64,000 nucleotides of DNA from the IMG/VR virus record IMGVR_UViG_3300045988_075875. One strand, given 5' to 3'. The notes below the pieces were generated by a model that worked only from the letters and a program-made list of their open reading frames with translations, was not told where the DNA came from and did not search any database. The position numbers and the translations under genes were made by a program. Positions 2,303 to 37,577 of this stretch are shown here, piece by piece. This DNA comes from a virus. Every line of letters begins with the position of its first letter. Position 1 is the stretch's first letter.

Positions 2303-2755
2303 ATGCTGTCATTGATTGACCAGTGCCGCGCGGTAAAAGAAGAAAAACACATCACCAACAAGGAGATCGCGGACGGCAGCGGAGTTCCTCTCAACACGGT
2401 GAACAATATGTTCCGTGCCACCACCCATTCCCCTACGTTGGAAACTCTCGGCCCCATCTGCGTTTTCCTCGGAATTTCCATTGACCAGTTTTTAGGGATG
2501 AAACCAACGGAAGATTCTACGCCACCGGAAACCATAGAGGAAATCATAAACCGGGAACTGTGTGTCTACCGTCAGGAGATCAACGGCCTGAACGCCCAGA
2601 ACGAACTTCTCCGGGAATTTATGGAACGTCAGTCCCACGGCATCCGCAACCGGGACCGTCTTTTGCGATGGATGTTGGTCCTTCTGATCTTCGTCTTGGC
2701 TTACGCCGTTTATCTGGACCTGCACTGTCTGGAATTTGGGTTCTTCCACGGCTGA
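2303..2755 (+). CDS. XRE-family HTH protein with coiled-coil and C-terminal transmembrane anchor
   Basis: 150 aa; AAGGAGG RBS; HTH ITNKEIADGSGVPLNTVNNMF; C-terminal LLRWMLVLLIFVLAYAVYL. Confidence 0.7.
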   Translation: MLSLIDQCRAVKEEKHITNKEIADGSGVPLNTVNNMFRATTHSPTLETLGPICVFLGISIDQFLGMKPTEDSTPPETIEEIINRELCVYRQEINGLNAQNELLREFMERQSHGIRNRDRLLRWMLVLLIFVLAYAVYLDLHCLEFGFFHG

Positions 2756-2775
2756 TACACACGGGAGGTGTGCGC

Positions 2776-4263: not shown

Positions 4264-5223
4264 TTATTTGGCTTGCACGTCCTCCACATAGCACCAGCTT
4301 TGGGGTGGGCGACCGATAACCCGGCCATCACAGTCCATTTTGGCGTATTGATTTTTAGGGGTATTGCGGAATAACTCTCTGTACGACGGTGCAGAGTTGT
4401 TTTTCTTTTTTGGGTCAGGCTTTTGCACAATGATTATGTACTCATTTACATTTTTAAAGAGAAGATTTGGAGGATAGGGATAGCTCCCGAATATAGGACG
4501 CTGGGAAGTTGAAGATCCCCATCTGCCGCCAGTACCCTTCTTATTCCAAATAATTTGATTGATTAGTGAGAAACCAACAGACTGCGCAATTTTGGTTAAA
4601 TCCGATGCAATAGGGATTGTCACTAACCCATATTCTTTAGTATTTTGATTGACATTTGCAGTAACAATACAAAGCTTTCTACCAGGCATAAGAACACGAT
4701 AGCATTCTCTGACAACACTTTCCATGCTGTCAATGAAATCATCATAATATTCAAATCCACCAATATTTCCAATGTACTCGCCATAGTCTGCTTTGTTCCA
4801 GTAAGGAGGGGATGTAATTACGGCGCCGATACTGTTGTCCGGAATGGAGGCCATATCCAGGCAACTGTGATTGTGAATTACAAAAGCCCCATTTGCATTT
4901 TCGATGTTCTTATTTTGAATGACTTCGAGTAACCGCTGGGTTGAACGCTCATAGTACGTGGAGTTTGTTTCAAAACCTACATACTTTCTGCCGTTACTTA
5001 ACGCCGCTTCGCCAGTTGTACCGGTCCCCGAAAAGGGGTCAAGAATAGTTTCTCCCCAAAAAGAAAACATTCGTAGGAGCCTGTAGGGAATTTCGACAGG
5101 AAAGACCGCAGGATGAACGCTATCGCTAATATTTGCGATATCCCATACCGTCATTGTCCATTCTTTCCATTCTTCGCTTGTTATTTTAGATAGTTCTTTA
5201 ATTTCTTTAGTAATAGTGGCCAT
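4264..5223 (-). CDS. DNA methyltransferase (N4-cytosine/N6-adenine type), motif order FxGxG before SPPY
   Basis: Start set at ATG 5223 (GGAGG RBS; track start is TTG). HPAVFPVEIPYRLLRMFSFWGETILDPFSGTGTT then ITSPPYW; visibly AT-richer than its neighbours. Confidence 0.85.
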   Translation of the reverse strand: MATITKEIKELSKITSEEWKEWTMTVWDIANISDSVHPAVFPVEIPYRLLRMFSFWGETILDPFSGTGTTGEAALSNGRKYVGFETNSTYYERSTQRLLEVIQNKNIENANGAFVIHNHSCLDMASIPDNSIGAVITSPPYWNKADYGEYIGNIGGFEYYDDFIDSMESVVRECYRVLMPGRKLCIVTANVNQNTKEYGLVTIPIASDLTKIAQSVGFSLINQIIWNKKGTGGRWGSSTSQRPIFGSYPYPPNLLFKNVNEYIIIVQKPDPKKKNNSAPSYRELFRNTPKNQYAKMDCDGRVIGRPPQSWCYVEDVQAK

Positions 5224-5238
5224 CCTTTTTACCTCCAA

Positions 5239-8944: not shown

Positions 8945-9628
8945 TCAACCTCCCGTAAACAAACTGATCTGCGCCGTGTGTTCCGCAAAGCGCTTTTCCT
9001 GCGCCTGAAAATAGTGAGGGTCGATCTCACACCCAACAAAATCAAAGCCAAGATCATAGGCGGCTATGCGGCTGCTGCCGCTGCCTAAGTGGGTGTCCAG
9101 TATCTTGTCTCCCGGCTTTGCGTACTTCTGCAAAATCCATGTGTATAACGCCACCGGCTTCTGCGTTGGGTGGATGCGCTTCTCATTAAGAGCTTTGTTC
9201 CCCTGTTGGACTGTCCCCTCTGCGATACTCTTCCCCTGGAACATCCCATTCCACATATAGCGGAACAGACGGACGCTTTCAAAGCAGTTCGTCGCCGCAA
9301 TTTCGCAATCGCTAAAGCTGCTCTCCCCATTGCACTTGTCCCACACGATTCGCCCGTGGGAAAACACGAAATCAAAGTAGTTACATCCCCATACGATATA
9401 ATGTTTTGACACTCTGTCCAATTCAGCAAAAAATTCTGCGTCAGGTATATCCCATTTGGGAGACACAGGGTAATCCCGTTTCACCCCAATGGGGCTGATC
9501 TTACAGCCATAATAGCCACGCCGCTCCGGACCGCTGAAATATGGAGGGTCCACCACGGCCAGATCAAACGCCTTGTCCTGCAGCGTCCGCATATACTCCA
9601 TGCAGTCCATGTTATAGGCTACGTTCAA
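8945..9628 (-). CDS. DNA methyltransferase, beta-class N6A/N4C (DPPY ... HPTQKP ... DTHLGSGSS)
   Basis: 227 aa; VVDPPYF at N-terminus, HPTQKPVALY, ILDTHLGSGSS at C-terminus; TTGA-coupled TTG start. Confidence 0.85.
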   Translation of the reverse strand: MNVAYNMDCMEYMRTLQDKAFDLAVVDPPYFSGPERRGYYGCKISPIGVKRDYPVSPKWDIPDAEFFAELDRVSKHYIVWGCNYFDFVFSHGRIVWDKCNGESSFSDCEIAATNCFESVRLFRYMWNGMFQGKSIAEGTVQQGNKALNEKRIHPTQKPVALYTWILQKYAKPGDKILDTHLGSGSSRIAAYDLGFDFVGCEIDPHYFQAQEKRFAEHTAQISLFTGG

Positions 9629-10976: not shown

Positions 10977-11469
10977 ACCGCCTTTTTTGGTGGTAAATGC
11001 AACAACAGCCTATGCCGCCCTTGTGCAACCTGACGAAAGGCGGCGGGAGCCGGGGCCGCTGCCGGTTCTCTGGACTTCGGTGGCGGTGGTGGTGGCCGTC
11101 CTCCGATGGTCGGCGGCTGGCCCGCTTGCGGTTCCCGGGCTGGTATGGTCGGCGGTGGCCGTGGTGGCCGATCTGATGCAATCAGCCGGAACAGACCCCC
11201 GGCGGTGACTCCTCCACCCTTTCCCCTTTTTCCCTTGTCCATTGCTTCCGGTCCTGCGGGAGTGCTCCGCGCTTTTCTTCATCCGGGTAAAGCGTCCGGG
11301 GGTCTCCGTGGGTACATTTGTGTATACTCTAATCAAGCGCGCCCGCAAGAAACGCGCCCGCGCGCATAGGGGTTAAAAATAGCCGCTTGGGACGGCGTAG
11401 GGTGCAAGCGGCTGCGCGGCGTGGGTCTGCTGCGGTGCGGTGCTGGGCAGTATTGCTCAGAGGGCACGA

Positions 11470-20760: not shown

Positions 20761-21036
20761 ATGAACAAGACTGAACTGATCGCCGCCGTGGCGGAGCGTT
20801 CCGGCCACACCAAGCACGATACCGCCATCATGATGGATGCCGTGTTCACCGTCATTGAGGAATCCCTGCTCAACGGCAGCGAGGTCAAAGTCCCCGGCTT
20901 CGGCAAGTTCGCCGTGAAGCACCGGGAAGCACGGGTGGGGAAAGACCCCCGCACCGGCGAGGAAAAGGAATTTCCCGCCAAGACGGTTGCGGTGTTCCGC
21001 CCCGCAAAGCCCCTGAAGGACGCCCTGAACGGCTGA
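20761..21036 (+). CDS. hup: HU-family DNA-binding protein
   Basis: 91 aa; MNKTELIAAVAE...GFGKFAVKHREARVGKDPRTGEEKEFPAKTVAVFRPAKPLKDAL, canonical HU/IHF fold sequence. Confidence 0.9.
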   Translation: MNKTELIAAVAERSGHTKHDTAIMMDAVFTVIEESLLNGSEVKVPGFGKFAVKHREARVGKDPRTGEEKEFPAKTVAVFRPAKPLKDALNG

Positions 21037-22600: not shown

Positions 22601-23320
22601 ATGGCACTGATAAAATGCACCGAATGTGGCAAAGAGTTCAGTGATAAGGCGTCCGCTTGCCCTAACTGCGGCTGCCCTACAAAGGATGTTTTGTCCGAAC
22701 TGGCCCGGTCTCAGGAAACGCTGGAAGTAGAGCCGAAAACCGCAGAACCTCCTGCACCTGAAACACCAACCACACCTGTGGAATCCGCTCCACAGTCTAC
22801 GCCAAGTGAAATGATTCTGCCTGCTACGGGAAATGACGATACAGAAAAGCCTTGTGGGGAAAAGAAAGGTCATAATATTGTTCAAATGCTTGTCGGCCTT
22901 TTTATCTGCTTTGCCATCCTTTGTGCTGGTTTTTTCGTATTCTCTAAGAAAACAAATAAAAATCTTCAAGATACGCATACGCAAACAAAAACGAGCGATA
23001 CTTACCATTCTTCAGGAAGCTCCTCCACCTCGTCCAGCTCTTATACGAAAAAGACGGACACGAACACCGCCCGCCATTCCGACGAGGACGCCTTTTACTG
23101 TGCACAGTTGATTGTAGAGGACTATCTGAAAGCGCCGTCCACTGCAAAATTCTGCAAGCTATCGGATGCTACCGTGACCCATTTGGGAAACGGTGAGTAT
23201 ATGGTCACAGGCTGGGTGGATGCGGAAAATTCCTATGGAGCCATGATCCGCAGTGATTTTGTTGTCACCTATACCGCCACCGAAAAAGGCTTTAAAAACG
23301 GGAACGCCATAATCGGATAA
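22601..23320 (+). CDS. zinc-ribbon / single-pass membrane protein (moron; possible surface or exclusion function)
   Basis: 239 aa; MALIKCTECGKEFSDKASACPNCGCP, Pro/Thr linker, TM LVGLFICFAILCAGFFVF, Ser-rich linker, C-terminal globular domain; own promoter and terminator; AT-richer. Confidence 0.65.
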   Translation: MALIKCTECGKEFSDKASACPNCGCPTKDVLSELARSQETLEVEPKTAEPPAPETPTTPVESAPQSTPSEMILPATGNDDTEKPCGEKKGHNIVQMLVGLFICFAILCAGFFVFSKKTNKNLQDTHTQTKTSDTYHSSGSSSTSSSSYTKKTDTNTARHSDEDAFYCAQLIVEDYLKAPSTAKFCKLSDATVTHLGNGEYMVTGWVDAENSYGAMIRSDFVVTYTATEKGFKNGNAIIG

Positions 23321-23332
23321 AGATTGAAAAAG

Positions 23333-23358
23333 ACCGCCCTTCCGGGCGGCCTTTTCTT
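23333..23358 (+). terminator. intrinsic terminator
   Basis: CCGCCC-ttcc-GGGCGG then CCTTTTCTTC. Confidence 0.7.
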
Positions 23359-23369
23359 CGCCTCTGCTC

Positions 23370-23416
23370 TTGACTTTTGCCAGACAAAATGCTATGATAC
23401 TTATGCCAGACAAAAT
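23370..23416 (+). promoter_or_regulatory. promoter with duplicated operator GCCAGACAAAAT
   Basis: TTGACT(23370)-17 nt-TATGAT(23393); GCCAGACAAAAT at 23379-23390 and 23405-23416. Confidence 0.6.
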
Positions 23417-23433
23417 AGGAGGTGATCATCCCC

Positions 23434-23610
23434 ATGTCTGCCGCAAAGCTGGGCCGTCCCACAGACAACCCTCGCCCTCACAAAATCAGCATCCGTATCA
23501 ATGACCGCAGCCAGCAGATTTTAGAAGCCTACTGCCGGGAGCAGAACGTCACGAAAACGGAAGCCATTGAGCGCGGGATCACCCTGCTGGCGACCGCCAA
23601 ACCGATATAA
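23434..23610 (+). CDS. ribbon-helix-helix (CopG/Arc-like) DNA-binding protein
   Basis: MSAAKLGRPTDNPRPHKISIRINDRSQQILEAYCREQNVTKTEAIERGITLL; likely autoregulator of the operator repeats. Confidence 0.6.
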   Translation: MSAAKLGRPTDNPRPHKISIRINDRSQQILEAYCREQNVTKTEAIERGITLLATAKPI

Positions 23611-23796
23611 AATTTCCCCATGCTGCTCTATCTTGCCGGACGGACAGCATGAGGAAAACGGCAAATATCCGCAGGGACTCGCCAAATTCATTATGGCGCG
23701 GGCCTTGTGAAAAGTCAAGTATTCTGTCAAAAAGCCCCTTGTCAGCGGCTGGTACAATAAAGATAGAATACTGGAAAGATCAAGGAGGAATCCCCA

Positions 23797-24876
23797 ATGC
23801 TCAAGAGTTACTATTTCGACGCGGCGGCCCACGAACCGCCTTCCCCTGCCGCGATCAAGGCGTTCACCCGCGCCCTGCCCCTTGGCAACCCAAGCGCCCT
23901 TCACGCCTGCGGCGTTGCCGCAAAGATCGCCTTGGAGGAAGCCCGCGCCTCCATCGCCCAGGACCTGAACTGTCTCCCGGAGGAAGTTTACTTCACCAGC
24001 GGAGCAACGGAAGCCTGCAACTGGATGATGAAAAGTCTGAGTGCCTACACCGGCAAGCTGGACTTCCCCCGCCATTACGAGCACCACTCCGTTTTGGAAT
24101 ATCCCCCCGTGGATCATCCCCACCGCACAGACCGCACCGGCTTCACCCACATGATGGCCAATAACGAGACCGGCGAGACTTACGACATTCTCTCCAGACG
24201 GCGAAACGCCCCCAACGCCCTGTTCGCCTGTGACGCGACGGCGGCGGTCGGCCAGATCCCCGTGGACTTCAAGGCCCTTGGCGTGGACTATCTGGCTTTC
24301 GGCGCTCACAAGTTCGGCGGCATCTCCGGCATCGGCTGTCTGATCGTCAAGAAAGACACGCCCCTGATTTCCATGATTCGCGGCGGAGATCAGGAGTGGG
24401 GCAAGCGCGGCGGCACCGAAAGCGTGGCCCTCGCCTGCGCCATGGCAGCGGCCCTCCATGAGCGCATGGACAATATGCTCTCCAACATGAAGCGGATCGC
24501 CCGTTGCCGCGACCTGCTGATTTCCTATTTGTTGAGGTTCGTCCCGGATACCTATGTCAACGGCCCCTATACCCCCGGTGACGTGCTCCTCCGTCTCCCC
24601 GGAAACGCCAACCTCTCTTTCCTTGGCGTGGAATCGCAGGCCCTTGTCATGGCCCTGTCTGCGGAGGGCGTGTACGCTTCCTCCGGCTCCGCCTGTACCA
24701 GCGGGGAGGCTGACGGAAGCTATGTCCTCCGGGCCATGGGCTACCCCGCCAACCGCGCCCGCTCCGCCGTCCGTTTCACTCTCCCCTATACCGTCACCGA
24801 GGATGATATTCTGGGCGCCGTCCCTCTGATCGTCAGCGCCGTGGAAAATCTCCGCCGCCTGACCCCTACCCCCTGA
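23797..24876 (+). CDS. cysteine desulfurase (NifS/IscS-like class V aminotransferase)
   Basis: 359 aa; PLP-lysine context AFGAHKFGGISGIGCLIV; catalytic Cys loop SSGSACTSG; AAGGAGG RBS. Confidence 0.8.
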   Translation: MLKSYYFDAAAHEPPSPAAIKAFTRALPLGNPSALHACGVAAKIALEEARASIAQDLNCLPEEVYFTSGATEACNWMMKSLSAYTGKLDFPRHYEHHSVLEYPPVDHPHRTDRTGFTHMMANNETGETYDILSRRRNAPNALFACDATAAVGQIPVDFKALGVDYLAFGAHKFGGISGIGCLIVKKDTPLISMIRGGDQEWGKRGGTESVALACAMAAALHERMDNMLSNMKRIARCRDLLISYLLRFVPDTYVNGPYTPGDVLLRLPGNANLSFLGVESQALVMALSAEGVYASSGSACTSGEADGSYVLRAMGYPANRARSAVRFTLPYTVTEDDILGAVPLIVSAVENLRRLTPTP

Positions 24877-24909
24877 TACCCGCCTGTTTAACTGGAAAGG
24901 ACTGATTTT

Positions 24910-25917
24910 ATGGGAAGAACCTCTGCGCAGGAGCGCCGGGTCATGTCGGCCTTAGACTCATGGCTCCGCAACGTGCAGGCCAGCGGCGCGGCGGAACGCA
25001 CCGTCACCGCCTACGCTGCCGTCACAAACAGCTTTTATTCCTTCCTCGTGGAAAGCGGCCTTTCCACCGAGGAACCCACCTTCACCACCATGCAAGCCTA
25101 CCGGGATCACCTCTTTGACCGTGGCCTCTCCCCTGTCTCCGTCCGGTATCATCTGGTGGTCCTCCGCTCCTTCTTCACCTACGCCAGCTCCCCCGAACTG
25201 GGCGAGGATCGCTTTTATGAGCAAAACCCTGTTTCCCTCTACCTGATGCCCTCCCTCCGCAAATTGGGAAAGCGCCCCTATGACGTGCTGCTCACCGATG
25301 AGCAGGTCTGCAAGCTCTGGAGGGATTCCCCAGTCCGCACCACCCACCCGGAGAACTGGCCCCGGAATTACGCCATCGTGATCCTGCTGCTGACCACCGA
25401 GCTGCGCAACGCCGAACTGCGGGCCTTGACCCCGGCGGACATCGACTTGGAGGAAGCCGCCCTCCGTGTGGAACACGGCAAGGGCGATAAATTCCGGGTG
25501 GTGGACCTGCCAGACATCGCCGTGATTGCCCTCCGCCATTACATTGCCAGCGGCATCCGCCCGGATGATCTCCCGGATACCGCCCCCCTGTTCGGCACCC
25601 TCCGTTCCGGGGAATGGAAGGCCGGCACAAAACAGTGGCTTTCGGAGCTGGTGGAGCGTCACGTCCGTTCCGTCACCGGCGTTCCGGACATCCGCAGCCA
25701 CGATCTCCGCCATGTCGGCTCCCGCTTGGATCTCAACTCCGGTATGCCCGAAAACGAACTGCAAGCCAAATTGGGCCATGCCAGTCCCGTCACCACCCAG
25801 CGTTATTCCGGGCGGCTCATGGACCGTTCCGGCCGGAAAAGCGCCAAGAAGGTCTTTGCCGAACGGGACTTGCAAGCCAAGCGCAGTGCCGACAAACTTG
25901 CCTCCTTTTCCGCCTGA
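24910..25917 (+). CDS. tyrosine recombinase, XerC/XerD-like
   Basis: 335 aa; N-terminal SAM-like core-binding domain, LLLTTELRNAE, HDLRHVGS, LGHASPVTTQRY. Confidence 0.8.
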   Translation: MGRTSAQERRVMSALDSWLRNVQASGAAERTVTAYAAVTNSFYSFLVESGLSTEEPTFTTMQAYRDHLFDRGLSPVSVRYHLVVLRSFFTYASSPELGEDRFYEQNPVSLYLMPSLRKLGKRPYDVLLTDEQVCKLWRDSPVRTTHPENWPRNYAIVILLLTTELRNAELRALTPADIDLEEAALRVEHGKGDKFRVVDLPDIAVIALRHYIASGIRPDDLPDTAPLFGTLRSGEWKAGTKQWLSELVERHVRSVTGVPDIRSHDLRHVGSRLDLNSGMPENELQAKLGHASPVTTQRYSGRLMDRSGRKSAKKVFAERDLQAKRSADKLASFSA

Positions 25918-26018
25918 TCCCTCAACATTTACCCTGAAATCAAAACACACGTCCGTGCGTTACTTCGCATGGGCGTGTGTTTTTATCGTGCGTTTTACGA
26001 AAGAAAGGACAATTTACT

Positions 26019-26666
26019 ATGATTTACGGCTATATCCGCGTCTCCACCGACAAGCAGACCTTGGAAAATCAGCGCCATATCATCCTCAATTACTGTGAAG
26101 TAAATGAGCTCCACATAGACGGCTGGATCGAGGAAACCATCTCCGGCACCAAGGCCCCGGACAAACGAAAGCTGGGCCAGCTTCTCCGCCATGTCCAGCC
26201 GGGAGACACCATCCTCTGTTCCGAGATTTCCCGCCTTGGCCGCAGCCTGTTTATGGTCATGTCCATCCTCTCCCTCTGCATGAGCAAGCGCGTCAGTGTC
26301 CACACCATCAAGGACGGCTTTGACCTCAGTGACGATCTCCAATCCAAGGTTCTTGCCTTTGCCTTTGCCCTTGCCGCCGAGATCGAGCGTCAGATGATCT
26401 CCCAGCGGACGCGGGAAGCGCTGGACCTCCGCCGCAGTCAGGGCGTCACCCTTGGCCGTCCAAAGGGTGCTTTGGGCAAGCACACCAAACTCTCCGACTA
26501 TGAATCCACCATCCGCGTTCTGATCGAGCAGGACAATTCCTATGCGGAGCTGGCTCGATTGTTCCATGTGGACCGTTCCACCATGAAACGCTTCTGCGAT
26601 GCGCGGGACATCAAACGCCCCTTTTCCCGCAGCGCCGCCGGTTTCATTTCCAACGTTGCGGGATAA
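26019..26666 (+). CDS. small serine recombinase (resolvase/invertase family, Hin/Gin/Cin-like)
   Basis: Start ATG 26019: MIYGYIRVSTDKQTLENQ (catalytic Ser), SEISRLGRS, C-terminal HTH YAELARLFHVDRSTMKRF; 215 aa is too small for a large serine integrase. Confidence 0.85.
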   Translation: MIYGYIRVSTDKQTLENQRHIILNYCEVNELHIDGWIEETISGTKAPDKRKLGQLLRHVQPGDTILCSEISRLGRSLFMVMSILSLCMSKRVSVHTIKDGFDLSDDLQSKVLAFAFALAAEIERQMISQRTREALDLRRSQGVTLGRPKGALGKHTKLSDYESTIRVLIEQDNSYAELARLFHVDRSTMKRFCDARDIKRPFSRSAAGFISNVAG

Positions 26667-26900
26667 CCCCCTCTATTTCGCCCGGAAACGCCCTCAGACG
26701 CGCTCCACCGCTTTCCTATCACTCCGTATACCGCCTGACCCGTCCTCGCGTTCCTGTGCCCCTCCCTGTCCGCCGCCGTTGCCATTTATAGGCTGTTTGG
26801 ACGCAACAGTTGATGGAAAAAGTTTTCTGCCTGCCGCCGGATTTCACGCTTTTTCGGCACGGCGGCTGTGGTACACTGACCGTAGAAAGGAGGAGACGAT

Positions 26901-27038
26901 ATGGAGCATCTGGACCCGGAATACCTCTGCCTGTTTCACGCCATTACGGAGACCATTGAAGAACTGGAACGGTTAAAAGCAGACCTGATGGCCGCACAGC
27001 GCAGAGCGGAAGCCCTGTACGTGGAGCGCACGGATTGA
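26901..27038 (+). CDS. small hypothetical protein (45 aa)
   Basis: Hand-found, strong RBS GAAAGGAGGAG; MEHLDPEYLCLFHAITETIEELERLKADLMAAQRRAEALYVERTD. Confidence 0.45.
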   Translation: MEHLDPEYLCLFHAITETIEELERLKADLMAAQRRAEALYVERTD

Positions 27039-27055
27039 CCGTGCGTTCCTTTTTT
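27027..27055 (+). terminator. intrinsic terminator just outside the left inversion-site candidate
   Basis: CGCACGG-attga-CCGTGCG then TTCCTTTTTT. Confidence 0.7.
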
Positions 27056-27070
27056 ACGTTGCGTCCAATT

Positions 27071-27084
27071 GGCCGATAGTTTGG
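27071..27084 (+). repeat. left copy of 14-bp inverted repeat GGCCGATAGTTTGG (candidate inversion crossover site)
   Basis: Perfect reverse complement at 28869-28882; each copy sits just upstream of the RBS of a tail-fibre gene. Confidence 0.6.
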
Positions 27085-27105
27085 CCGGGAAGGAGCGTGG
27101 CTGAT

Positions 27106-27798
27106 ATGGCATATACACCGACAGTCTGGAAGAATGGAGAATTTCCTCCGATTGACGCGGAGCACCTCAACAAGATCGAGCAGGGCATTGCCAACTCTGC
27201 CCCTGGCGGGTTTGGGTTGGGAGAGTTAAGTGGACGGACGGCCAATAGTTTTTCTGATATAACTGGCTATGGATTCTATCGGATTCCAACTGAAAGTGGT
27301 TTTGCTCCAGACACATCGACGAACTGGGGGGGCGTCTATATTGGGGCAAGTCTATCGTATGGAACCCTGCTGTATGCACGGAATAGCGCATTGATGGCCG
27401 TAAGAGAGGTTTCTGGTGGTGAAGTCGGCCCAATTGAATGGATCAATCCTCCCATGCAGTTAGGCGTAGAGTACCGCACCACGGAGCGGTATCTTGGCAA
27501 GCCGGTTTATGTGAAAACGATAAACATGGGGAATCTCCCGGGCAATGCCGTAAAGCAGTCCAGTTTCCAGTCGAACAATGTTGTTGATAAAATCGTATCC
27601 GTAACCGGGCAATGCACTTCCGACTCAGGCGTGAACATGTCCTTGCCTTACCACGCAGGGTCTGGTCCGAACTGGAATACCGTAATTCTTATTGGCGCGA
27701 CAGGGGTAGGAACAGCTCAAATTGTCACATTTGCTGAAGATTTTGCCGGTTATACAGATGCCTGTATCACGGTAAAATACACCAAGTTGGCAGATTAA
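27106..27798 (+). CDS. tail fibre / receptor-binding protein, variant A (currently not joined to late operon)
   Basis: ATG 27106 (AAGGAG RBS): MAYTPTVWKNGEFPPIDAEHLNKIEQGIANS parallels variant B N-terminus; C-terminus unrelated. Confidence 0.7.
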   Translation: MAYTPTVWKNGEFPPIDAEHLNKIEQGIANSAPGGFGLGELSGRTANSFSDITGYGFYRIPTESGFAPDTSTNWGGVYIGASLSYGTLLYARNSALMAVREVSGGEVGPIEWINPPMQLGVEYRTTERYLGKPVYVKTINMGNLPGNAVKQSSFQSNNVVDKIVSVTGQCTSDSGVNMSLPYHAGSGPNWNTVILIGATGVGTAQIVTFAEDFAGYTDACITVKYTKLAD

Positions 27799-27810
27799 AG
27801 GGGTGGCTCT

Positions 27811-27900
27811 ATGGAAAACACCTGCGTATGCTGCGGAGCCATCATCCCCGAAGGCTTACAGGTCTGTCCGATCTGTCAACGAACGTGGCCCACATTTTGA
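27811..27900 (+). CDS. 29-aa Cys4 zinc-ribbon mini-protein A
   Basis: MENTCVCCGAIIPEGLQVCPICQRTWPTF; homologous mirror copy on minus strand. Confidence 0.5.
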   Translation: MENTCVCCGAIIPEGLQVCPICQRTWPTF

Positions 27901-27933
27901 AAAGCCGGAGGGAAATCCCCTCCGGCTTTTTTT
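27901..27933. terminator. bidirectional terminator at the centre of the convergent fibre cassettes
   Basis: AGCCGGAGGG-aaatc-CCCTCCGGCT then TTTTTTT. Confidence 0.8.
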
Positions 27934-28019
27934 CAGAACTCCGGCCACCGTCTCTCACACTGAGGACACACCTGACGGCCTTCGGGGATGATAGCCCCAC
28001 AACAGATGCAAGTGTTCAC
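27933..28019 (-). CDS. 28-aa Cys4 zinc-ribbon mini-protein B
   Basis: GTG start overlapping fibre B stop (GTGTGA): (M)NTCICCGAIIPEGRQVCPQCERRWPEF. Confidence 0.5.
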   Translation of the reverse strand: MNTCICCGAIIPEGRQVCPQCERRWPEF

Positions 28020-28858
28020 ACCAATGCACCGTCCATGAAAATGATGCCGCCGTAGTCCTTTTTATACTTAGTTGTACCGTCAATCGTGCAGTTATAGCCA
28101 ACAACAATTCCACCAAACCCGGAACTGGAGGAACCCGAATTGATCGCAACCGCATTATTCGTTCCGCTTACACGTCCACAGTATAGCGTTGTGCCGTCTG
28201 CGGAGATGCCTGCTTTGCTTTTATCAGAAACTTCTGAATAGTAGATGCTTGCCCATGTGCATGAATCAAACCACACCCCAAAGACGGCCATAGTGCCAAC
28301 TAAGGCGACATCATAAACCTGGATACCATGTACATGCAAAGCCGCTACGTTAGAACCGGAAGTTGCCCCTTTGATCGTGAATTTGCTGATCAGAACGAAG
28401 CACATACACGATGAGACTTCGATGCCACCAGTAACAATTGTGCTTTCACGATCCTCGCCTATGATGGAAATGGCGTAATGATTCAGGTAGCCAGTCCCGA
28501 AAAAACCGGCGATTTTAAATCCGGCATATTCACCAGCGGCGACACTGATTTTAATTTCGCTTGCCCCAAGATTTTTTGGCAAAGAATCAATGGCCCTCTG
28601 AACCTGGCGGAACGGCTTGCTCTGGCTGCCATCACCGGTGTTATCGTTCCCGCTGGGGGAAACATAAATGGTTTTGAACGCATTCAAGCCTATTTGTTCC
28701 GCCCCGATGTTCGTCCGGGCCTGCGACTGTTGTTCGGAACTGAGCGTCTGCGGCGTAACGCTGACCGCATCCGCAATCCCCTGTTCGATTTTATTCAGAT
28801 GGTCGGCGTCCAGCGCCGGGGCCTGACCGTTGACCCACACGGTTTTCTCGTATGCCAT
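28016..28858 (-). CDS. tail fibre / receptor-binding protein, variant B (in expressed orientation), beta-helix-like C-terminal part
   Basis: 280 aa; MAYEKTVWVNGQAPALDADHLNKIEQGIADA; GGAGG RBS; last gene of late operon. Confidence 0.75.
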   Translation of the reverse strand: MAYEKTVWVNGQAPALDADHLNKIEQGIADAVSVTPQTLSSEQQSQARTNIGAEQIGLNAFKTIYVSPSGNDNTGDGSQSKPFRQVQRAIDSLPKNLGASEIKISVAAGEYAGFKIAGFFGTGYLNHYAISIIGEDRESTIVTGGIEVSSCMCFVLISKFTIKGATSGSNVAALHVHGIQVYDVALVGTMAVFGVWFDSCTWASIYYSEVSDKSKAGISADGTTLYCGRVSGTNNAVAINSGSSSSGFGGIVVGYNCTIDGTTKYKKDYGGIIFMDGALV

Positions 28859-28868
28859 TACACCACCT

Positions 28869-28882
28869 CCAAACTATCGGCC
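28869..28882 (-). repeat. right copy of 14-bp inverted repeat (CCAAACTATCGGCC on plus strand)
   Basis: See 27071-27084. Confidence 0.6.
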
Positions 28883-28954
28883 GTTTTTCCGCAACAAATC
28901 TTCTTCATAAAAGTCCTCCTTTTGATCCGGTGCCCTTTTGGGCTGCTTCACTGT

Positions 28955-30211
28955 TCAGGTGGGCCACCCCGTCACGGTGGCTGTGGGGAAATCCTGGACC
29001 GACACGGCGGAAATCTGCATGGGGCCGCTCCATGTCAGGGGCCTTGTGAACCCCTGTACCAGATGCCGCTCCACCGGAGACCCCGCCTTGTCGCTCCGCA
29101 CAATGGAGATCAGTTCGTTCTCGTTCAGGTGCATGATCTGGCTGCACGAAACCGAGACGGACTTTTGCAGTGCCGCGGACCGTTTCAGCTTCCACACAGC
29201 CAAGTCCTCGCACTGTCTTTTCGTGGAATATCCCGCCGCCCGGTAGCGCACGGTTTTGCGCCCAATCCGACTTACATTCGTGCTGCTGGCCGGGTCCAGA
29301 TTCTGTGCCCGCGCCGCCACCTGCGCACTGTTGTTCACGGCTTCCCCAATCACGATGAAATCGTTGTACACCTCCGTGTTCTTCTCCGTGTACTCCGTCC
29401 CCAGCAGCTCCGCCTCGCTTTGGGAGAACTGCCACGCCAGCGGCTTGTCGCTGTCCAGAATGTCATCCTGAGAGGGATCGATCCGCAGTGCGCCGGACGC
29501 ATCGTACCCGATCCACGCCGCCAGCATTTCCGCAAGGCCGAGGCACACGTCCGCATAGCTTCCGTTTTCGCTGTCCACCCGCAGGGTGTAGGGTGCGTCC
29601 GTCAGCTTGAACACAGACCCGTCCGCCAGCTGCTGAGTCTTGCCGTTGTAATATTCCGTAAATACCGGGGGCACGTTGTCCACCAGATCCCCGTTCCCCC
29701 GGTCCAGCTTCAGCAGGGCGGCGATGGGGTCAAAGACGTTGGTCCCTGCCTTTACCTCGTAGGTGCTTTCCAGATAGCCGAAAAGTGTTCCGTCCAGGTC
29801 CGACCATTTGTCCACCAGGTTGTACTGCGCCGTCCGCTTGGCCGGTTCCAGCGTCTCCACAGGGTCCTTCACCAGAAAGACCCCCTGTTGGATGTAAAAG
29901 TCCGTGCCGTCGCTGAGCACAAGCCCCTCGTCCAGTGCGATCCGGTTCCCGAACCACACCCGGTTGATGTTGTAATCGAACGTGCCGTCCAGATTCGCCA
30001 GTGTCACCGAGGCCGTCCGCCGCTGGCCGTTGTTCAGATTCACAGACAGGCTTCCGTCCGCGATAAATGCCCCGGCAAAGCGCCCCGTTGGGTTGTTGTC
30101 CAGTGCGAAAGCCGTGGAGCCGTCCGGCTGTAAAAACCGCAGACGGCACAGCTTGGTAAAAGGCCGGCGCAGCATTTTGCGGTAATCGTTCATCCGTTCC
30201 GCTTGGGTCAT
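28955..30211 (-). CDS. tail tip / baseplate hub-like protein (Tal/gpD-like by position)
   Basis: 418 aa, GGAGG RBS, second gene downstream of the tape measure gene. Confidence 0.45.
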   Translation of the reverse strand: MTQAERMNDYRKMLRRPFTKLCRLRFLQPDGSTAFALDNNPTGRFAGAFIADGSLSVNLNNGQRRTASVTLANLDGTFDYNINRVWFGNRIALDEGLVLSDGTDFYIQQGVFLVKDPVETLEPAKRTAQYNLVDKWSDLDGTLFGYLESTYEVKAGTNVFDPIAALLKLDRGNGDLVDNVPPVFTEYYNGKTQQLADGSVFKLTDAPYTLRVDSENGSYADVCLGLAEMLAAWIGYDASGALRIDPSQDDILDSDKPLAWQFSQSEAELLGTEYTEKNTEVYNDFIVIGEAVNNSAQVAARAQNLDPASSTNVSRIGRKTVRYRAAGYSTKRQCEDLAVWKLKRSAALQKSVSVSCSQIMHLNENELISIVRSDKAGSPVERHLVQGFTRPLTWSGPMQISAVSVQDFPTATVTGWPT

Positions 30212-32342: not shown

Positions 32343-35300
32343 TTAATGTTTGTAGAGGCCCAAGTTCCCGGCCCCGTGGTTCAATGCCTTCATGACCTGC
32401 GCAACGGTCAGGCGGTTGGCCGCCTCCGCCCCGATCTGAACGCCGTTTACGCTGTAACTGTCTCCGTAGTGGTCATAGCTGGTCCGGCTCATCACCGTCT
32501 TTCCCGGCATGGTGCCGCCCCGCTCCGCTGCGCCGTACAGCCACCCAAGTTCGCTCATCCGCTTTTGGAAGGTGCTGTCTGCGCTGGGTTCCAGCATCTT
32601 TTCCGCCAGCAGCGGGGGAATCACAATCTCGTCCTGACTGGTGGCCTTGATACCCCCAAGTCCCCGCAGGATGCCGCCGGAATCGTACTTCTTGTACGGG
32701 TCCTTGCCGCCGTACTTATCGTTGATCTTGTTCTGCCGTTCTTCCTTTAGTTTGTCGATGGTGGACTGACTGGCTCCATTCTTCTCCGCGTTCTTGATAG
32801 CCAGAGAGTAGTCCACGTTGCTGTCATAGCCCTTGCCGGAAGAACCGGAGGAATTGCTTTTGGAGGAAGAGGAACCGCCGCTGGAGGGCGGCTTAAAGCC
32901 TTCGTTCATTTCAGCGTCCGTCCAGCCGCCGCCGGGGTTTTTGTTGAAGTCAAAATGGAATCCACCGCCGGAAGAACCGCCTCCAGACGGGCTTGAACTC
33001 CCGCCGGACGGGCTTGAACTTCCGCCGGACGGTTTGCCGCCCTTGTCCGGGTCTACCCCGCCGTACATGGCGTTGATCTTGTTCTGCCGCTCCGTCTCTA
33101 ACTGCTTGATTACGCCTTCCCCGGCTCCGGACTCCTTGGCCTGCTTGATGGCAAGGTTGTAATCCACGTTCTTGTCATAGCCAACGTAGTGCATTTCGTT
33201 GCCGTTTGCGTCAACCTTGGTGTAAATTCCCGACAGGTCATCCCGTGCCGCTCCCTGATGGACGTTGGTGGCGGAAACCGCATAGCCAAGTTTGTCATAG
33301 GTGATCACATAGCCGTTTTTTTCAACGGTTTTTCCCGCCAGCTTTTCGTCCCGGCTCATGTCCGGGCCTTTGTACTTGCCCTGCTCTCCTTTTCCATAAG
33401 GCGTTGTGTCCTTAAAATTCAGGTCGGCTGCACTGCCGTCCGCCAACTGCCAGCCGGAAGCGCTGCTTCCGTTAAACCCCTCATTCATTTCAGCGTCCGT
33501 CCAGCCGCCGCCGGGGTTCTTGTTGAAATCAAAATGGAACCCGCCGGTGGTCCCGGTCCCGTTGGTCACGCCGCCCGGTTGGCCGGGGAACTGTCCGCCG
33601 TTTATAGCCCCGGCAATGTACTGATTCAGCTTGCCCAGCAGATTGTTGACCTCATCAACCTGCTCCCGCATTTTGGGCGTCCCGTTTCTGGCAATGTCGC
33701 TGAGAATATCGCTGATCGTCCGGGTGGGGTTTTGCATGCTGTCCGTGATCCGCTTCCACTCGGCCTTTAGGGTGTTATAGGTTTCTTCGATCAGGGTTTT
33801 CTTGGCTTCCAGTTCGTCAATTTCCCGCTGAAGAGCCAACTCCCGCTCATATTCCGCCAAGTCCTCCTTGGCCTTTTCATAGGCATCCTGCGCGGACTTC
33901 ACGGACGAGGCGTTGGCTTCCCACTCCCATTGTCCGGTTGCGGCGTTGAATACCCGCACCGTCCGTTCCTTCTGGGCTTCCAGCAAGGCGTTCTGCTTTT
34001 CCAGCACCGCCGCCTTCAGCTGTTCCAGTTTCAGAGCTTCGTCCTCGGCTTGCTTGGCGTCCTTCAGCGCTTCAATCTGCTTGTCAATGGCGTCAACCTG
34101 CTTGTCACGGGCATCCGCCGCTTCTTCCAGCTTTTTGTTTACGGCATCTTCCAGTTCGTCCCAAAGATCCTCCTGCAGCTCCTTGATCTGCTTGGTGATC
34201 TTCCAGTGCTCCGTGGACAGGGCGTTGATGTCCGCCTGACTGGCCCCGATCCGCCGCATATACTCCGCCTGTGCGTGGAGCGCCGCTTGGATCTGCCGCA
34301 TCTTGTCGATCTGGTCCGCCGTGCTGTCCCCCCGCTCCTGCATGAGGGAAAGCTCCGACTTCCGCAGGGATACGATGTCCTTCAGCCGTTCCAGCTCCGC
34401 GTCCTTAGTGGATTTCCCCGTGGACGATGTGGTGGAGGACGTATCCACTCTGGAGGTGGTATCCACCGTCCCGCTGTCCCGCCCGGTGTCCGTAAACATG
34501 GACTTGTAGATCCGGTTCAGAACGATGGCACGGGCTTCGTCATAGGTCTTGGCCTTTCCGGTCTGCAACAGGCCCTTGATGGTCCGCTCTACATCCTGCG
34601 TCTTGGCGGCACCGATCATGCCCACGGAATAGGCGGCCGCCCCGGCTTCGGTGGCCAGCTGCCGCAGCGCCCCGATCTGCTGACTCAGGTCCAGCTTCTT
34701 CTCGTTCAGAACGATCATCCGCTTCACCAGATTGTAAATCTGATCCCCGGTTTTCCCTGCTTGCTTTTGTTCGCGGATCAATCCGTTTACATAGTATGTG
34801 ATGCGGTTTGATGCTTCGTCATACGCTTTATTCAGTTTATCAAGTGCGGCCTTTGCCTCTGTATTCTTATCACCAAGCACATCATGAGCTTGTGCAAACC
34901 TGGCAAGTCCCGTGGTAACGGAATCGTATTCTCCCTGAAGTTCTTCAAGGTCTCCCCGGTTCTCCTTCAGCTTTTCAGAAAGTGCCGATGCTTGTGCAAT
35001 CAGGGATTTCTCATACGTCTCCCCGGTCTGATAGGCTTTTTTCTCCGTTTCCTCAAACTGGACGCCCAGCGCCTCCAATTCCTTCCGGGACTTTTCCGCC
35101 GCTCCCGGAATGTACTGGTCCAGGTATGCGGTCAGTTCCGCATAGCTCTTAAAAGTCCGCCCAGTGAGACCCAGCGCCTCCGCACCGCCCCGACTTTCCC
35201 CCATAGAGGTCAGGTGATATACCGTCTCCCCGGTTCCTACATACCCTCCGGCGCTTTTCAGGGTGCGCTTGGCCTGTCTCTCTTCCAGTTTTTTGAGTTT

Positions 35301-37577
35301 TTCAATCTGCCGTTCCAGTTCGGCGTTTTCCTGTTCCAACGCCGCCTTTTCATTCAGAATTTCCGGAGTTTTTTCGTTCCAGCCAAGCTCATTGATCTCG
35401 GTGAGCCGCCGCCGATTTTCCTCCAACTTTTCTGTGTTGTCGGAAATGTCGGTGTTCAGTTCGTCAAGGCTTTTCCGGTAGTCCTCCGTGGCATTCCACA
35501 AAAATTCAAACGCCGCCACCGTCGCGCCGATGGCAAGAATCCACGGGTTCATGGTGATCCCAGCCGCCGACAGTTTTGTAAACGCCGCCGTCGCGCCCTT
35601 GGCCGCCGCCTGAATACCGATCAGCCCCAGCGACACCGCTCCGGCAGTCACCGCCGCGTGCCCAAGGTCCGTGTTCAGGGATTCTACCGCGCCGATCAGA
35701 ACGTCCAGTCCGCCCTTAACGGTGTCGGTGCTCACCATGCTTTGAATGAACTCCGTCCATTCGTTTTTCAGAATGTTGGTCTTGCGGGTCCAACTGTCCA
35801 GCGCGTTTTCAATTTCCTTGTCCGCGCTTCCTACGGCGTTGGCGTAGTCTTTCAGCATGGACTGGTACATATCCCAGTTCTGGATCAGGGCCAGCAGTTG
35901 AGAGGTCCGCAGCTTGCCGCCGATGTCGCTGACCATCTCCATCAGCTTTTGTTCGGTCAGCAGCCCGTCCTTCATGCTCTGGGCAAGGCCCCCGATGGCT
36001 TCCATGGGATCAATGACCTCGCCGGTGGCCTTGGCCGCTTCATACGCAGCCGGGGCGTACTGTCGGATTACGTCCCTCAACCCGGCGATCTCCCCAGTGG
36101 TCCACGTCACGCCCTCGTCGATCTCGGTTTTCGTGTCCCCCACGATGTTCAGCACAAGTGCCCGGAACGCACGGGCCGCTTCGCTGCCGCTCCGCTGTGT
36201 GACCGCCGTGATCGTACCGATTGCCGCCGTCAGTTCATCGATCCCCACATGGGCCTGTGCCGCCACCGGAGCCACGGTCCCCAAGCCCTCCGCCAGCTTT
36301 TCAATGCTGGTGGCGTACTTGTTGTCAATCTCGTTGGCGCCGTCCAGCACCTTGGTCAATGCTTCAATGTTTCCCTTGTACTGATACGCCGCGTCCACGG
36401 ACAGCAGGAATTGCTGTGCCGTTTCTGCGTTAGTGTCGCCAACCAGCTTTGTCTTGGTGGCCAGCTCCGCCAGCGCGTCCGCCTGTTCGCCGTAACCGGC
36501 ACGGGCAAACGCCGCCACGGAGTTCAGATATTCGTCCGCCGCCTCGCCGTAGGCCGATGCCGTCTCATAGGCCCGATCCCGCAGATTTTCCATCTGCTCC
36601 GCTGTAAAGCCAGTTACCTTGCGGACCGTCACCATTTCATCGTCCACGGCTTTCGTGGTGGAAATGGCATCCCGGAAGGCCCCAATGGTCTTGGAGACGA
36701 TGGTTCCCATCACCTGCCATTGCAGCATTTTCAGGTAGACGTTGGTGAATCTGTCCCCTAACAGCCCGGTTTTCTCGGTAGACTCCTTTACGCCTTCACT
36801 GAGTCGGTAGACCTCTCCGGTCGCTTGGTCAATGGCGATCTTGAAGTTTTGGGCAGTCCCGTCCGCGTTCTTGACGCTTGCCCGGAATGTTTGAAACGTT
36901 CCAGCGGAATCCTGTACGATGCCCGTGGCCTTTACCTGTGCGTTTTGCAGTCCGTCCAGCGTCTTGATATACTCCTTGGCGCTTTCAGTGTTTCCGCTAA
37001 ACAGTCCTTGGCTCTGCCCGTACTTGGTTTGAATATTGCTCCACGCCCGCTCAAACGCGCCGGCACTGTCCGCAGCACTCTTGGCGGCATTCCCGATGCC
37101 CACCATGCCCTCGATCTGCCGCTGGATTGATGTGGGATTATAAGGGGTGTTCTGCGCTGCTCTGGTCTGCTGCTGTAAATAGGCGTTGGCCTGTCGGGTG
37201 GCTTTCAGTTCTGCGGCAGCGGCTTTCTCCGCCGCTTGGGCCTGCTGTCGGTAGTTCCGGGTCACGGTCTGCTGGGTCACAGCAAGATCTCCCGTCTCCT
37301 TGTTCAGCGTTGCCACCACGCGGGTGGTCTCTCCCAGCCGTGCGGAGAAATCCCGCACCTGCCGCGTGGCCTGCCCGTTTGCGTCAAAAGTGGTGGAGAC
37401 CTTCTGTAAATTCCCCGCCAGCTTCCCGGCGGCATTGGCCGCGCCGTTCAAGCCCTGCGTTGTGCCGTTCAGATTCACCTTTGTGGAGGAAACCGACGCT
37501 ACCTCCTGCTTCAGCTTTGCGATCTCCGCTCGGACCTCTGTAAAATCGGGTACGCCCTTAAAGATAATTTGTGCCAT
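32343..37577 (-). CDS. tail tape measure protein
   Basis: 1744 aa; long A/E/K/Q-rich coiled coils, central hydrophobic segment, Gly/Ser-rich C-terminal region with internal duplications; lies between tail and tail-tip genes. Confidence 0.9.
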   Translation of the reverse strand: MAQIIFKGVPDFTEVRAEIAKLKQEVASVSSTKVNLNGTTQGLNGAANAAGKLAGNLQKVSTTFDANGQATRQVRDFSARLGETTRVVATLNKETGDLAVTQQTVTRNYRQQAQAAEKAAAAELKATRQANAYLQQQTRAAQNTPYNPTSIQRQIEGMVGIGNAAKSAADSAGAFERAWSNIQTKYGQSQGLFSGNTESAKEYIKTLDGLQNAQVKATGIVQDSAGTFQTFRASVKNADGTAQNFKIAIDQATGEVYRLSEGVKESTEKTGLLGDRFTNVYLKMLQWQVMGTIVSKTIGAFRDAISTTKAVDDEMVTVRKVTGFTAEQMENLRDRAYETASAYGEAADEYLNSVAAFARAGYGEQADALAELATKTKLVGDTNAETAQQFLLSVDAAYQYKGNIEALTKVLDGANEIDNKYATSIEKLAEGLGTVAPVAAQAHVGIDELTAAIGTITAVTQRSGSEAARAFRALVLNIVGDTKTEIDEGVTWTTGEIAGLRDVIRQYAPAAYEAAKATGEVIDPMEAIGGLAQSMKDGLLTEQKLMEMVSDIGGKLRTSQLLALIQNWDMYQSMLKDYANAVGSADKEIENALDSWTRKTNILKNEWTEFIQSMVSTDTVKGGLDVLIGAVESLNTDLGHAAVTAGAVSLGLIGIQAAAKGATAAFTKLSAAGITMNPWILAIGATVAAFEFLWNATEDYRKSLDELNTDISDNTEKLEENRRRLTEINELGWNEKTPEILNEKAALEQENAELERQIEKLKKLEERQAKRTLKSAGGYVGTGETVYHLTSMGESRGGAEALGLTGRTFKSYAELTAYLDQYIPGAAEKSRKELEALGVQFEETEKKAYQTGETYEKSLIAQASALSEKLKENRGDLEELQGEYDSVTTGLARFAQAHDVLGDKNTEAKAALDKLNKAYDEASNRITYYVNGLIREQKQAGKTGDQIYNLVKRMIVLNEKKLDLSQQIGALRQLATEAGAAAYSVGMIGAAKTQDVERTIKGLLQTGKAKTYDEARAIVLNRIYKSMFTDTGRDSGTVDTTSRVDTSSTTSSTGKSTKDAELERLKDIVSLRKSELSLMQERGDSTADQIDKMRQIQAALHAQAEYMRRIGASQADINALSTEHWKITKQIKELQEDLWDELEDAVNKKLEEAADARDKQVDAIDKQIEALKDAKQAEDEALKLEQLKAAVLEKQNALLEAQKERTVRVFNAATGQWEWEANASSVKSAQDAYEKAKEDLAEYERELALQREIDELEAKKTLIEETYNTLKAEWKRITDSMQNPTRTISDILSDIARNGTPKMREQVDEVNNLLGKLNQYIAGAINGGQFPGQPGGVTNGTGTTGGFHFDFNKNPGGGWTDAEMNEGFNGSSASGWQLADGSAADLNFKDTTPYGKGEQGKYKGPDMSRDEKLAGKTVEKNGYVITYDKLGYAVSATNVHQGAARDDLSGIYTKVDANGNEMHYVGYDKNVDYNLAIKQAKESGAGEGVIKQLETERQNKINAMYGGVDPDKGGKPSGGSSSPSGGSSSPSGGGSSGGGFHFDFNKNPGGGWTDAEMNEGFKPPSSGGSSSSKSNSSGSSGKGYDSNVDYSLAIKNAEKNGASQSTIDKLKEERQNKINDKYGGKDPYKKYDSGGILRGLGGIKATSQDEIVIPPLLAEKMLEPSADSTFQKRMSELGWLYGAAERGGTMPGKTVMSRTSYDHYGDSYSVNGVQIGAEAANRLTVAQVMKALNHGAGNLGLYKH

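Follow-up and report, generated by a model that had tools for sequence, protein, structure and literature searches.

The 64,000-nucleotide (nt) stretch of DNA from IMG/VR virus record IMGVR_UViG_3300045988_075875, hereafter called the window, derives from an uncultured human-gut siphovirus with a genome of approximately 73 kb. It contains a segment of 1784 bp in which two complete, convergent tail-fibre genes, hereafter fibre A and fibre B, lie between inverted copies of the 14-mer GGCCGATAGTTTGG. The segment is a real flip-switch, since sequence-identical contigs from public metagenomes carry it in both orientations, and it is very likely a programmed switch in which DNA inversion selects the receptor-binding fibre of the phage. 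Both isomers occur in genomes that differ by no single-nucleotide polymorphism (SNP), the recombination site is conserved, and the same cassette types are found at the expressed and the silent junctions. As read from the genes involved, a flip would most likely change which bacteria the phage attaches to.

In the window, fibre B follows the gene of a 418-amino-acid (aa) tail protein and fibre A lies beside the small open reading frame (ORF) orf45 and a serine invertase gene. Look-ups with the exact protein sequences of fibres A and B returned contigs with the opposite arrangement, in which fibre A followed the 418-aa tail protein and fibre B lay beside orf45 and the invertase. Contig ERZ27272214:k141_146959 (L158/L163; L-numbers are labels of the retrieved relative loci and contigs) had 100.000% identity with the window over positions 23095-27084 (3990 nt), 27071-28882 (1812 nt) and 28869-29054 (186 nt). 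Only 27071-28882 was reversed and the rest was collinear, with 0 mismatches in approximately 6 kb, i.e. the flip occurred without one point mutation over that distance. The alignment blocks overlapped exactly on the two 14-mers, which are the breakpoints, leaving fibre A joined to the tail operon and fibre B behind the orf45 terminator. The late-operon-to-fibre-A junction was also present in L162 (SRR3992995), which was 100% identical, and two further 100% identical contigs, L164 (a 73,239-bp scaffold) and L165, had the window orientation. The same inversion with the same breakpoints occurred in L001, L156 and L159, which were 96-98% identical. An initial annotation of this DNA had predicted what recombination between the 14-mers would produce, and L158/L163 and L162 carry that product, with complete genes swapped. 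Its proposal of a whole-gene swap also held, because the crossover lies upstream of both start codons and complete genes are consequently exchanged.

The probability that the opposite orientation is an assembly artefact generated by the inverted repeats is close to nil. Assemblers do struggle at the locus, several contigs (L160-L162, L165, L158) ending near the switch, but the assembly k-mers (up to k141) are all far longer than a 14-bp repeat and k-mers across the junctions need real reads, so the isomers are not misassemblies. Moreover, assemblies made in different ways and from different samples (MEGAHIT k141, SPAdes, IMG/VR and Logan) each span both junctions.

The features of the locus, in the order of the window, are as follows:

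24910-25917, + strand: XerC/D-like tyrosine recombinase (Phage_integrase 2e-17, SAM-like N-domain; XerA/XerC/XerD-like matches below cutoffs), probably outside the switch.
26019-26666, + strand: Mpi-family small serine DNA invertase of 215 aa, with catalytic Ser9 in YIRVSTDKQ and a C-terminal helix-turn-helix (HTH).
26778-26807: degenerate hybrid site GTTGCC-ATTTATA-GGCT-GTTTGGA-CGCAAC, two outer half-sites joined at the core.
26901-27038, + strand: orf45, a 45-aa helical protein; spacer between invertible segments in four-cassette relatives.
27023-27055, + strand: intrinsic terminator before the silent cassette, a stem at 27023-27049 plus a T-run.
27058-27084, + strand: silent-junction recombination site GTTGCG-TCCAATT-GGCCGATAGTTTGG, with the 14-mer at 27071-27084; breakpoint of the natural inversion.
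27085-28868: invertible segment (the 1784 bp enclosed by the 14-mers); 100%-identical contigs carry it either way round.
27106-27798, + strand: fibre A, a complete gene with its own Shine-Dalgarno sequence, predicted to be silent in the window orientation.
27811-27900, + strand: mini-ORF A, a 29-aa Cys4 zinc-ribbon protein.
27901-27933: bidirectional terminator common to both cassettes, predicted by RNA folding.
27933-28019, - strand: mini-ORF B, a 28-aa Cys4 zinc-ribbon protein.
28016-28858, - strand: fibre B, a complete gene, predicted to be the expressed cassette in the window orientation.
28858-28908, - strand: leader ORF MKKICCGKTADSLEVV, 16 codons, with a strong Shine-Dalgarno sequence.
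28869-28895, - strand: expressed-junction recombination site GTTGCG-GAAAAAC-GGCCGATAGTTTGG (read on the - strand), with the 14-mer at 28869-28882; breakpoint of the natural inversion.
28955-30211, - strand: last constant tail-operon gene, 418 aa (phrog_1887 tail protein, 5e-37).

Most of this layout had been described in the initial annotation and was recovered at the same coordinates: the 14-mers as inverted repeats at 27071-27084 (+) and 28869-28882 (-), and the two convergent cassettes of fibre gene and mini-ORF around a central terminator. The fibres had been said to have a conserved N-terminus and an unrelated C-terminus, and the first 31 residues of A and B are 68% identical while their C-termini are unrelated; the mini-ORFs, described as homologous, are 78% identical. 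Fibre B is joined to the late operon as claimed, the tail operon on the - strand running from the tape-measure gene (32343-37577, PhageMin_Tail) through the genes of a 699-aa and the 418-aa tail protein into fibre B. The stem and T-run of the terminator postulated in front of fibre A were likewise present, and a promoter-like site between this terminator and fibre A was not found. The spacing from 14-mer to ATG is unequal, 21 nt for fibre A and 10 nt for fibre B. Allowing up to 2 mismatches, the window contains no third copy of GGCCGATAGTTTGG.

By itself, a perfect 14-bp inverted repeat could be a chance event, because a second, unrelated pair, TGTGCCGTCTGCGG, occurs in the same 6 kb (28190-28203 and 30137-30150); the weight of the 14-mers rests on their position, their conservation and the natural isomers. 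The TGTGCCGTCTGCGG pair lies within fibre B and the 418-aa tail gene, shows no conservation signal and is probably there by chance. Scanning IMG/VR and metagenome contigs with the pattern GTTGC-N8-GGCCGATAGTTTGG returned 15 and 38 stretches, respectively. Four metagenome matches to the 19-base pattern (L120, L137, L143, L153) had no fibre or phage context and were rejected as chance. The site was present in 56 distinct sequence contexts within a family of gut siphoviruses of approximately 73 kb, and its consensus GTTGCg-N4-A-N-c-GGCCGATAGTTTGG (in short form GTTGCS-N7-GGCCGATAGTTTGG) was nearly invariant across them. Outside the site the flanks were of four unrelated types, the tail-operon end, the terminator side of orf45, the upstream side of orf45 and a position approximately 125 nt 3' of the invertase stop codon; inside it they were of two types, each with a Shine-Dalgarno sequence and a fibre ATG. 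In the window the repeat extends imperfectly to 27 nt (27058-27084 and 28869-28895), and the functional site is approximately 27-30 bp rather than 14 bp, because GTTGC is kept across unrelated flanks. The sites precede 79 complete fibre genes, which form 43 clusters at 80% identity, and five of the 43, including those of fibres A and B, were found at both the operon junction and silent junctions.

These data bear on a second alternative, in which the two orientations reflect rare, non-programmed rearrangement, homologous or illegitimate, between short inverted repeats that have no regulatory role. The chance occurrence of perfect 14-bp repeats, with a second pair in the region, would allow for it, as would the DNA identity of approximately 70% between the fibre N-termini. 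The breakpoints, however, are exactly the 14-mers and not the longer homologous N-terminal coding stretch, and zero-SNP genomes differ by the inversion only. Moreover, one and the same 14-mer stands before 43 fibre clusters, at least five of which occur in both junction classes, and a dedicated invertase is present. We consider this explanation very improbable.

The site is centred on CGGCCG and has weak dyad symmetry, the best axis, GG|CC, lying between bases 2 and 3 of the 14-mer with 6.7 of 13 pairs complementary, compared with approximately 3.25 expected by chance. The strict 12-2-12 dyad symmetry of Hin-type sites was considered and rejected, since the two halves of the site differ from each other and a palindromic GC would form the central dinucleotide. 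It is this GC at the centre of CGGCCG that is probably the exact crossover. In addition to the two full sites, the window contains the third, degenerate one at 26778-26807.

Folding of the RNA gave the central hairpin (27901-27933) a stability of -25.7 kcal/mol on the + strand and -24.3 kcal/mol on the - strand (z approximately -5.5); this hairpin was missed by a consensus terminator scan and recovered by folding. The terminator on the orf45 side has an 11-bp stem with 8 GC pairs and a T-run (-21.9 kcal/mol, z -5.5). The leader ORF begins in constant-flank DNA and runs across the 14-mer to a stop at TAATG that overlaps the start codon of fibre B; when fibre A occupies the junction its sequence is MKKICCGKTADSLAGKERG and its stop falls 1 nt short of the ATG. 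A leader ORF with the Shine-Dalgarno sequence AAGGAGG was present at 43 of the 44 operon junctions, and for both inner-flank types its end either overlaps the fibre ATG (TAATG) or lies 1 base before it (TGAtATG). This arrangement looks like translational coupling that would license only the cassette at the operon junction, and the leader ORF seems to stand in for the constant N-terminal exon of Mu-type systems.

The product of 26019-26666 matches PF00239 (Resolvase) over residues 2-143 at 1.7e-34, with a weak HTH_38 match at 155-191, and PHROG125 'DNA invertase' at 6e-48; its N-terminal catalytic domain, Ser9 and C-terminal HTH fit the small serine recombinases. Against NCBIfam NF009949, the master DNA invertase Mpi family, it scored 280.3 bits over model positions 1-198 of 203, the curated equivalog cutoff being 272 bits. 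The nearest solved relative was Gin (4m6f, 3uj3), at only E 7e-15 over residues 1-188, followed by gamma-delta resolvase at approximately 3e-12. The initial annotation had called the gene a Hin/Gin/Cin-type invertase, which is correct for its position and for the class of serine invertases and, on these matches, wrong for the family, which is Mpi. Trans-acting promoter inversion as in Mpi does not describe the locus, the two full sites of the window flanking one adjacent, gene-bearing segment and not a promoter. The window also encodes an HU-like DNA-binding protein (20761-21036, + strand; PF00216, 4.6e-30); HU helps looping in Hin-type inversion.

We infer the acting enzyme, the exact crossover, the expression logic and the host-range consequence as follows. 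The Mpi-family serine invertase would recombine the two inverted sites of approximately 27-30 bp with their identical 14-mer cores, the crossover falling in the 5' untranslated region (5'-UTR), 10-21 nt before the fibre start codons. The 1.8-kb segment would flip whole, with its two complete fibre genes, each accompanied by its own ribosome-binding site and Cys4 mini-gene. Only the cassette facing the tail-operon end would be transcribed, its translation probably being coupled to the leader ORF from the constant flank; transcription would end at the central bidirectional terminator and the other cassette would be silent behind the orf45 terminator. Virions would then carry either fibre A or fibre B, presumably giving two adsorption specificities.

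Several points weigh against this mechanism. A contig-level search found no contigs of both orientations within one sample, the closest proxy for coexisting orientations being the zero-SNP contigs of opposite orientation from different samples. Some low-level expression of the silent fibre is conceivable. The invertase is linked to the site by sequence comparison, the site is weakly symmetric, unlike typical Hin/Gin sites, and the scan of genome contigs yielded only invertases that were at most 65% identical, so that the host was not placed. Loci that lack the invertase may be a single lineage, in which case the co-occurrence evidence described below is not independent. Finally, the tyrosine recombinase is always adjacent to the invertase, and enzymes of the XerD type are predicted to act as invertases in the Rin shufflon of Bifidobacterium prophages (PMC6109161).

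The last of these points belong to a third alternative, in which the inversion is real and is catalysed by the XerC/D-like tyrosine recombinase (24910-25917), the serine recombinase having another role. Wherever enough flank is available, family members have the tyrosine recombinase next to the invertase, and the asymmetry of the site resembles that of the shufflon sfx and rix sites (PMC6109161). Integration would not need this enzyme, and it is probably not the integration enzyme, because a separate tyrosine integrase, which is larger (459 aa) and carries a zinc-ribbon insert, is encoded at 2560-3939 (+ strand). The pattern of gene presence nevertheless argues for the serine enzyme. Every locus with two intact cassettes has the serine invertase where the flank is present, and in the loci with the tyrosine recombinase and without the invertase (L018/L034, L026, L126, L128, L133, L134, L135, L149, L154) one fibre body has been lost in nine of nine. 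One site type is always just downstream of the invertase gene, approximately 125 nt 3' of its stop codon in all relatives. We therefore regard the tyrosine recombinase as an unlikely catalyst of the inversion and the serine invertase as the acting enzyme with high probability, which is held short of near-certainty because the invertase-less loci may share ancestry. In those loci it is the invertase-proximal fibre body that is deleted, so that its start codon reads on into mini-ORF sequence (MAYG(N/K)QLRML...). Neither site has been lost from them, and without exception the operon junction holds the intact fibre.

The scan of genome contigs with the invertase identified 80 Mpi-family loci with 55-65% identity, distributed over many phyla. 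In these 80 loci no homologue of the fibre genes was found, and tblastn (E <= 1e-3) detected none of the tyrosine recombinase. Four of the 80, with invertases 57-59% identical, carried the motif GATAGTTGGG 66-85 nt downstream of the invertase gene; this motif is one base off the inner half of the 14-mer, and in L059 and L096 it has an inverted partner approximately 1.7 kb away. The recurrence of such a motif (GATAGTTKGG) beside distant Mpi-family genes, where the tyrosine recombinase was not detected, also speaks against the latter as the acting enzyme. In L059 (9595-9673 / 11374-11452), L096 (637-695 / 2338-2396), L092 and L112, which are from metagenome-assembled genomes of Paludibacteraceae and others, the Mpi-family genes are followed by bipartite inverted repeats, GTTCAGTTGCA and GATAGTTGGG separated by approximately 28 nt, that flank approximately 1.7 kb; both motifs echo the phage site, and the spacing differs.

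The fibre genes close the tail operon. Fibre A has exactly the sequence of GenBank DAE22058.1 from Siphoviridae sp. ctBtS10, whose near-identical genome has its fibres annotated only as 'hypothetical protein' and 'Xylosidase'. It has 1465 homologues, all unnamed or hypothetical, one of them with collagen repeats. An AlphaFold (AF2) model built from 51 sequences had a mean predicted local distance difference test (pLDDT) score of 72, rising above 90 from approximately residue 115, and its confident part is only the C-terminal beta-sandwich head (residues 115-230). In fold comparison its best matches were collagen-like and tail-fibre proteins of siphoviruses (BFVD, E down to 2e-14), and in PDB there was a weak match to the R2 pyocin fibre. 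Fibre B matched phrog_4577 tail protein at 7e-11, with weak matches to the DUF1565 beta-helix, a phage glycoside hydrolase and a staphylococcal phage tail fibre. The fibres have conserved N-terminal 30 residues followed by an invariant hinge, APGGxGLG, and these would fit a common attachment module. Together, the model and the matches support the view that the genes encode tail fibres, receptor specificity being a predicted property.

The mini-ORFs occur as 34 distinct protein variants across the loci, with CxCCG...CPxC..WPxF kept in all, and on this conservation they are real genes. The mini-protein is far more conserved than the fibre heads and is for that reason unlikely to be a head-specific chaperone. 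A Cys4 mini-protein of 28-29 aa also follows fibre genes of the family in phages without the invertase or the 14-mer (L005-L016).

Relatives of the window carry more than one invertible pair. ERZ1034842.47 (L148+L119) has four sites and four cassettes, in the order operon, site, fibre 237, fibre 249 (reversed), site, orf45, site, fibre 139, fibre 170 (reversed), site, invertase, each fibre facing away from its site; L037 has at least three sites before its contig ends. The orf45 spacer was found in both orientations relative to the invertase among the relatives, and orf45 itself had no match in Pfam, PHROGs or NCBIfam. In one relative (L131 (1850) / L138 (91)) a fibre gene without a recognisable 14-mer follows the tail operon, and a separate invertible pair, one site of which is GGCCGGTAGTTTGG, lies between orf45 and the invertase; it may be a locked or rearranged variant.

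The position of the degenerate site 26778-26807 is occupied in the four-cassette relatives (L037; L148+L119) by full sites around another fibre pair. L036, L129 and L151 contain an equivalent fusion of half-sites with the other end of the orf45 spacer, the core being GGCC in L036 and GGCT in the window. On this comparison the hybrid looks like the mark left when a second fibre pair was lost precisely at GGCC, a loss that would have happened in at least two configurations, although 26778-26807 may also be a weak third site. Such a loss could have come about by invertase-mediated deletion, given the palindromic GC crossover, or by microhomology slippage.

The palindromic CGGCCG at the centre of the sites and the hybrid scars (26778-26807; L036, L129, L151) suggest a more speculative reading, on which the locus is a cassette platform as well as a two-state switch. 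We think it rather unlikely, as a whole, that the invertase also excises cassette pairs as circles and re-inserts them. Complete receptor-binding genes would then be exchanged among gut phages in an integron-like manner, an extension we put forward with equal reserve, and 43 cassette types behind one invariant 14-mer would be explained. In that case the site-spanning leader ORF would license whichever fibre arrives by translational coupling.

The window resembles the Mu G/Gin, P1 C/Cin and e14 P/Pin systems in that a phage-encoded small serine invertase adjoins an invertible segment in the tail gene cluster, with two convergent fibre sets, each with a small downstream gene, and an orientation that picks the set for a fixed upstream operon. 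The crossover of Mu and P1 falls within the fibre gene, whose N-terminal part is thereby constant and whose C-terminal part varies. In the window, by contrast, the 14-mers are 21 and 10 nt before the ATGs, the crossover is in the 5'-UTR and each cassette, a complete gene, supplies both a Shine-Dalgarno sequence and an ATG. A zinc ribbon of 28-29 aa, and not a U-type assembly chaperone, is the product of the companion gene, and the enzyme is of the Mpi family, unlike those of Mu, P1 and e14, matching Gin only at E 7e-15. The sites of Hin, Gin, Cin and Pin are 26 bp long, with two 12-bp half-sites and a 2-bp non-palindromic core, and no such clear 12-2-12 dyad is present here. As in hixL and hixR, the sites of Salmonella Hin, an invertase of the same enzyme family, the identical 14 bp of the phage sites comprise the core and the inner half-site, and the outer halves diverge. 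Complete gene cassettes are moved to and from one expression site by inversion in Campylobacter fetus sap and in Mycoplasma surface antigens, which are cellular surface proteins handled by different recombination machinery. The Mpi repeat consensus, ARACGTWCGT, has no resemblance to the phage site.

The relatives with three or four full sites (L037; L148+L119, the latter with four cassettes) and an invertible spacer would allow several isomers, as in p15B Min and the shufflons; the window itself is limited to two active sites and one degenerate one. Min and the shufflons exchange C-terminal gene segments (PMC6109161), whereas the exchange here is of whole genes. The Rin system has a tyrosine recombinase and an 11-bp rix site, with a constant N-terminal Rc and variable C-terminal Rv genes (PMC6109161). 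Like Rin, the present system inverts receptor-binding-protein genes of a human-gut-bacterium phage at short asymmetric repeats, with the recombinase beside the cassettes; unlike Rin, it has complete genes as cassettes and, likely, a serine invertase. Mpi of Bacteroides fragilis flips promoters at many chromosomal loci in trans (PMC5903667). The phage enzyme belongs to the same curated family and its crossover is also in non-coding DNA before the regulated genes, but here the genes would flip relative to a fixed operon, in cis and in a phage.

The classical, Mu-like form of the same head-domain family occurs in another gut phage (L002/L003), with a 486-aa fibre and intragenic repeats. The layout of the window is thus distinct from the Mu-like one, as the initial annotation had argued, the repeat lying inside the fibre gene in L002/L003 and upstream of it in the window, and both forms coexist in nature. 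The repeats of L002 (3280-3321 / 4675-4716) and L003 (1310-1334 / 2813-2837 / 3761-3782) are inverted, 25-42 nt long and located at hinge-coding sequence (..LANKAPGGYGLG..), possibly in three copies.

Gene-altering tail-fibre inversions have been described (PMC9881135), and no description of a whole-gene or Mpi-family phage fibre switch was found in the limited collection of literature searched. The function is known from Mu G/Gin, P1 C/Cin and p15B Min-type systems; the whole-gene cassettes at a 5'-UTR site, the Mpi-family enzyme, the asymmetric site with a palindromic centre and the zinc-ribbon companion set the present system apart from these. Phage fibre switching would thereby be extended to an Mpi-family invertase and to whole genes, instead of C-terminal exons, moved to a fixed expression site. 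Little is known of gut-phage host range, which is usually treated as fixed per genome. Here an abundant family of gut siphoviruses (820 members in the tail-protein cluster at 90% identity, a single one of them found on 202 contigs) carries two to four complete alternative receptor-binding genes, with flipping faster than the accumulation of one SNP. A reference genome would then capture a single adsorption state out of several, a host predicted from the 'expressed' fibre may be the wrong one, and assemblies are expected to break or differ at the locus. The compact site of 27-30 bp together with the 215-aa invertase might also find use as a component of genetic switches.

Among 50,697 GenBank phage records, megablast of the locus gave no match, and tblastn with fibre B and the 418-aa tail protein gave only weak or unannotated matches in GenBank phages. 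The best of these, MT835723, has 62.6% identity to the 418-aa tail protein and was rejected as a cultured-phage relative, since its gene order differs and it lacks the site. Two DNA methyltransferase genes are present in the early region of the phage, at 4264-5238 (- strand) and 8945-9628 (- strand), with PHROG matches down to 2e-57.

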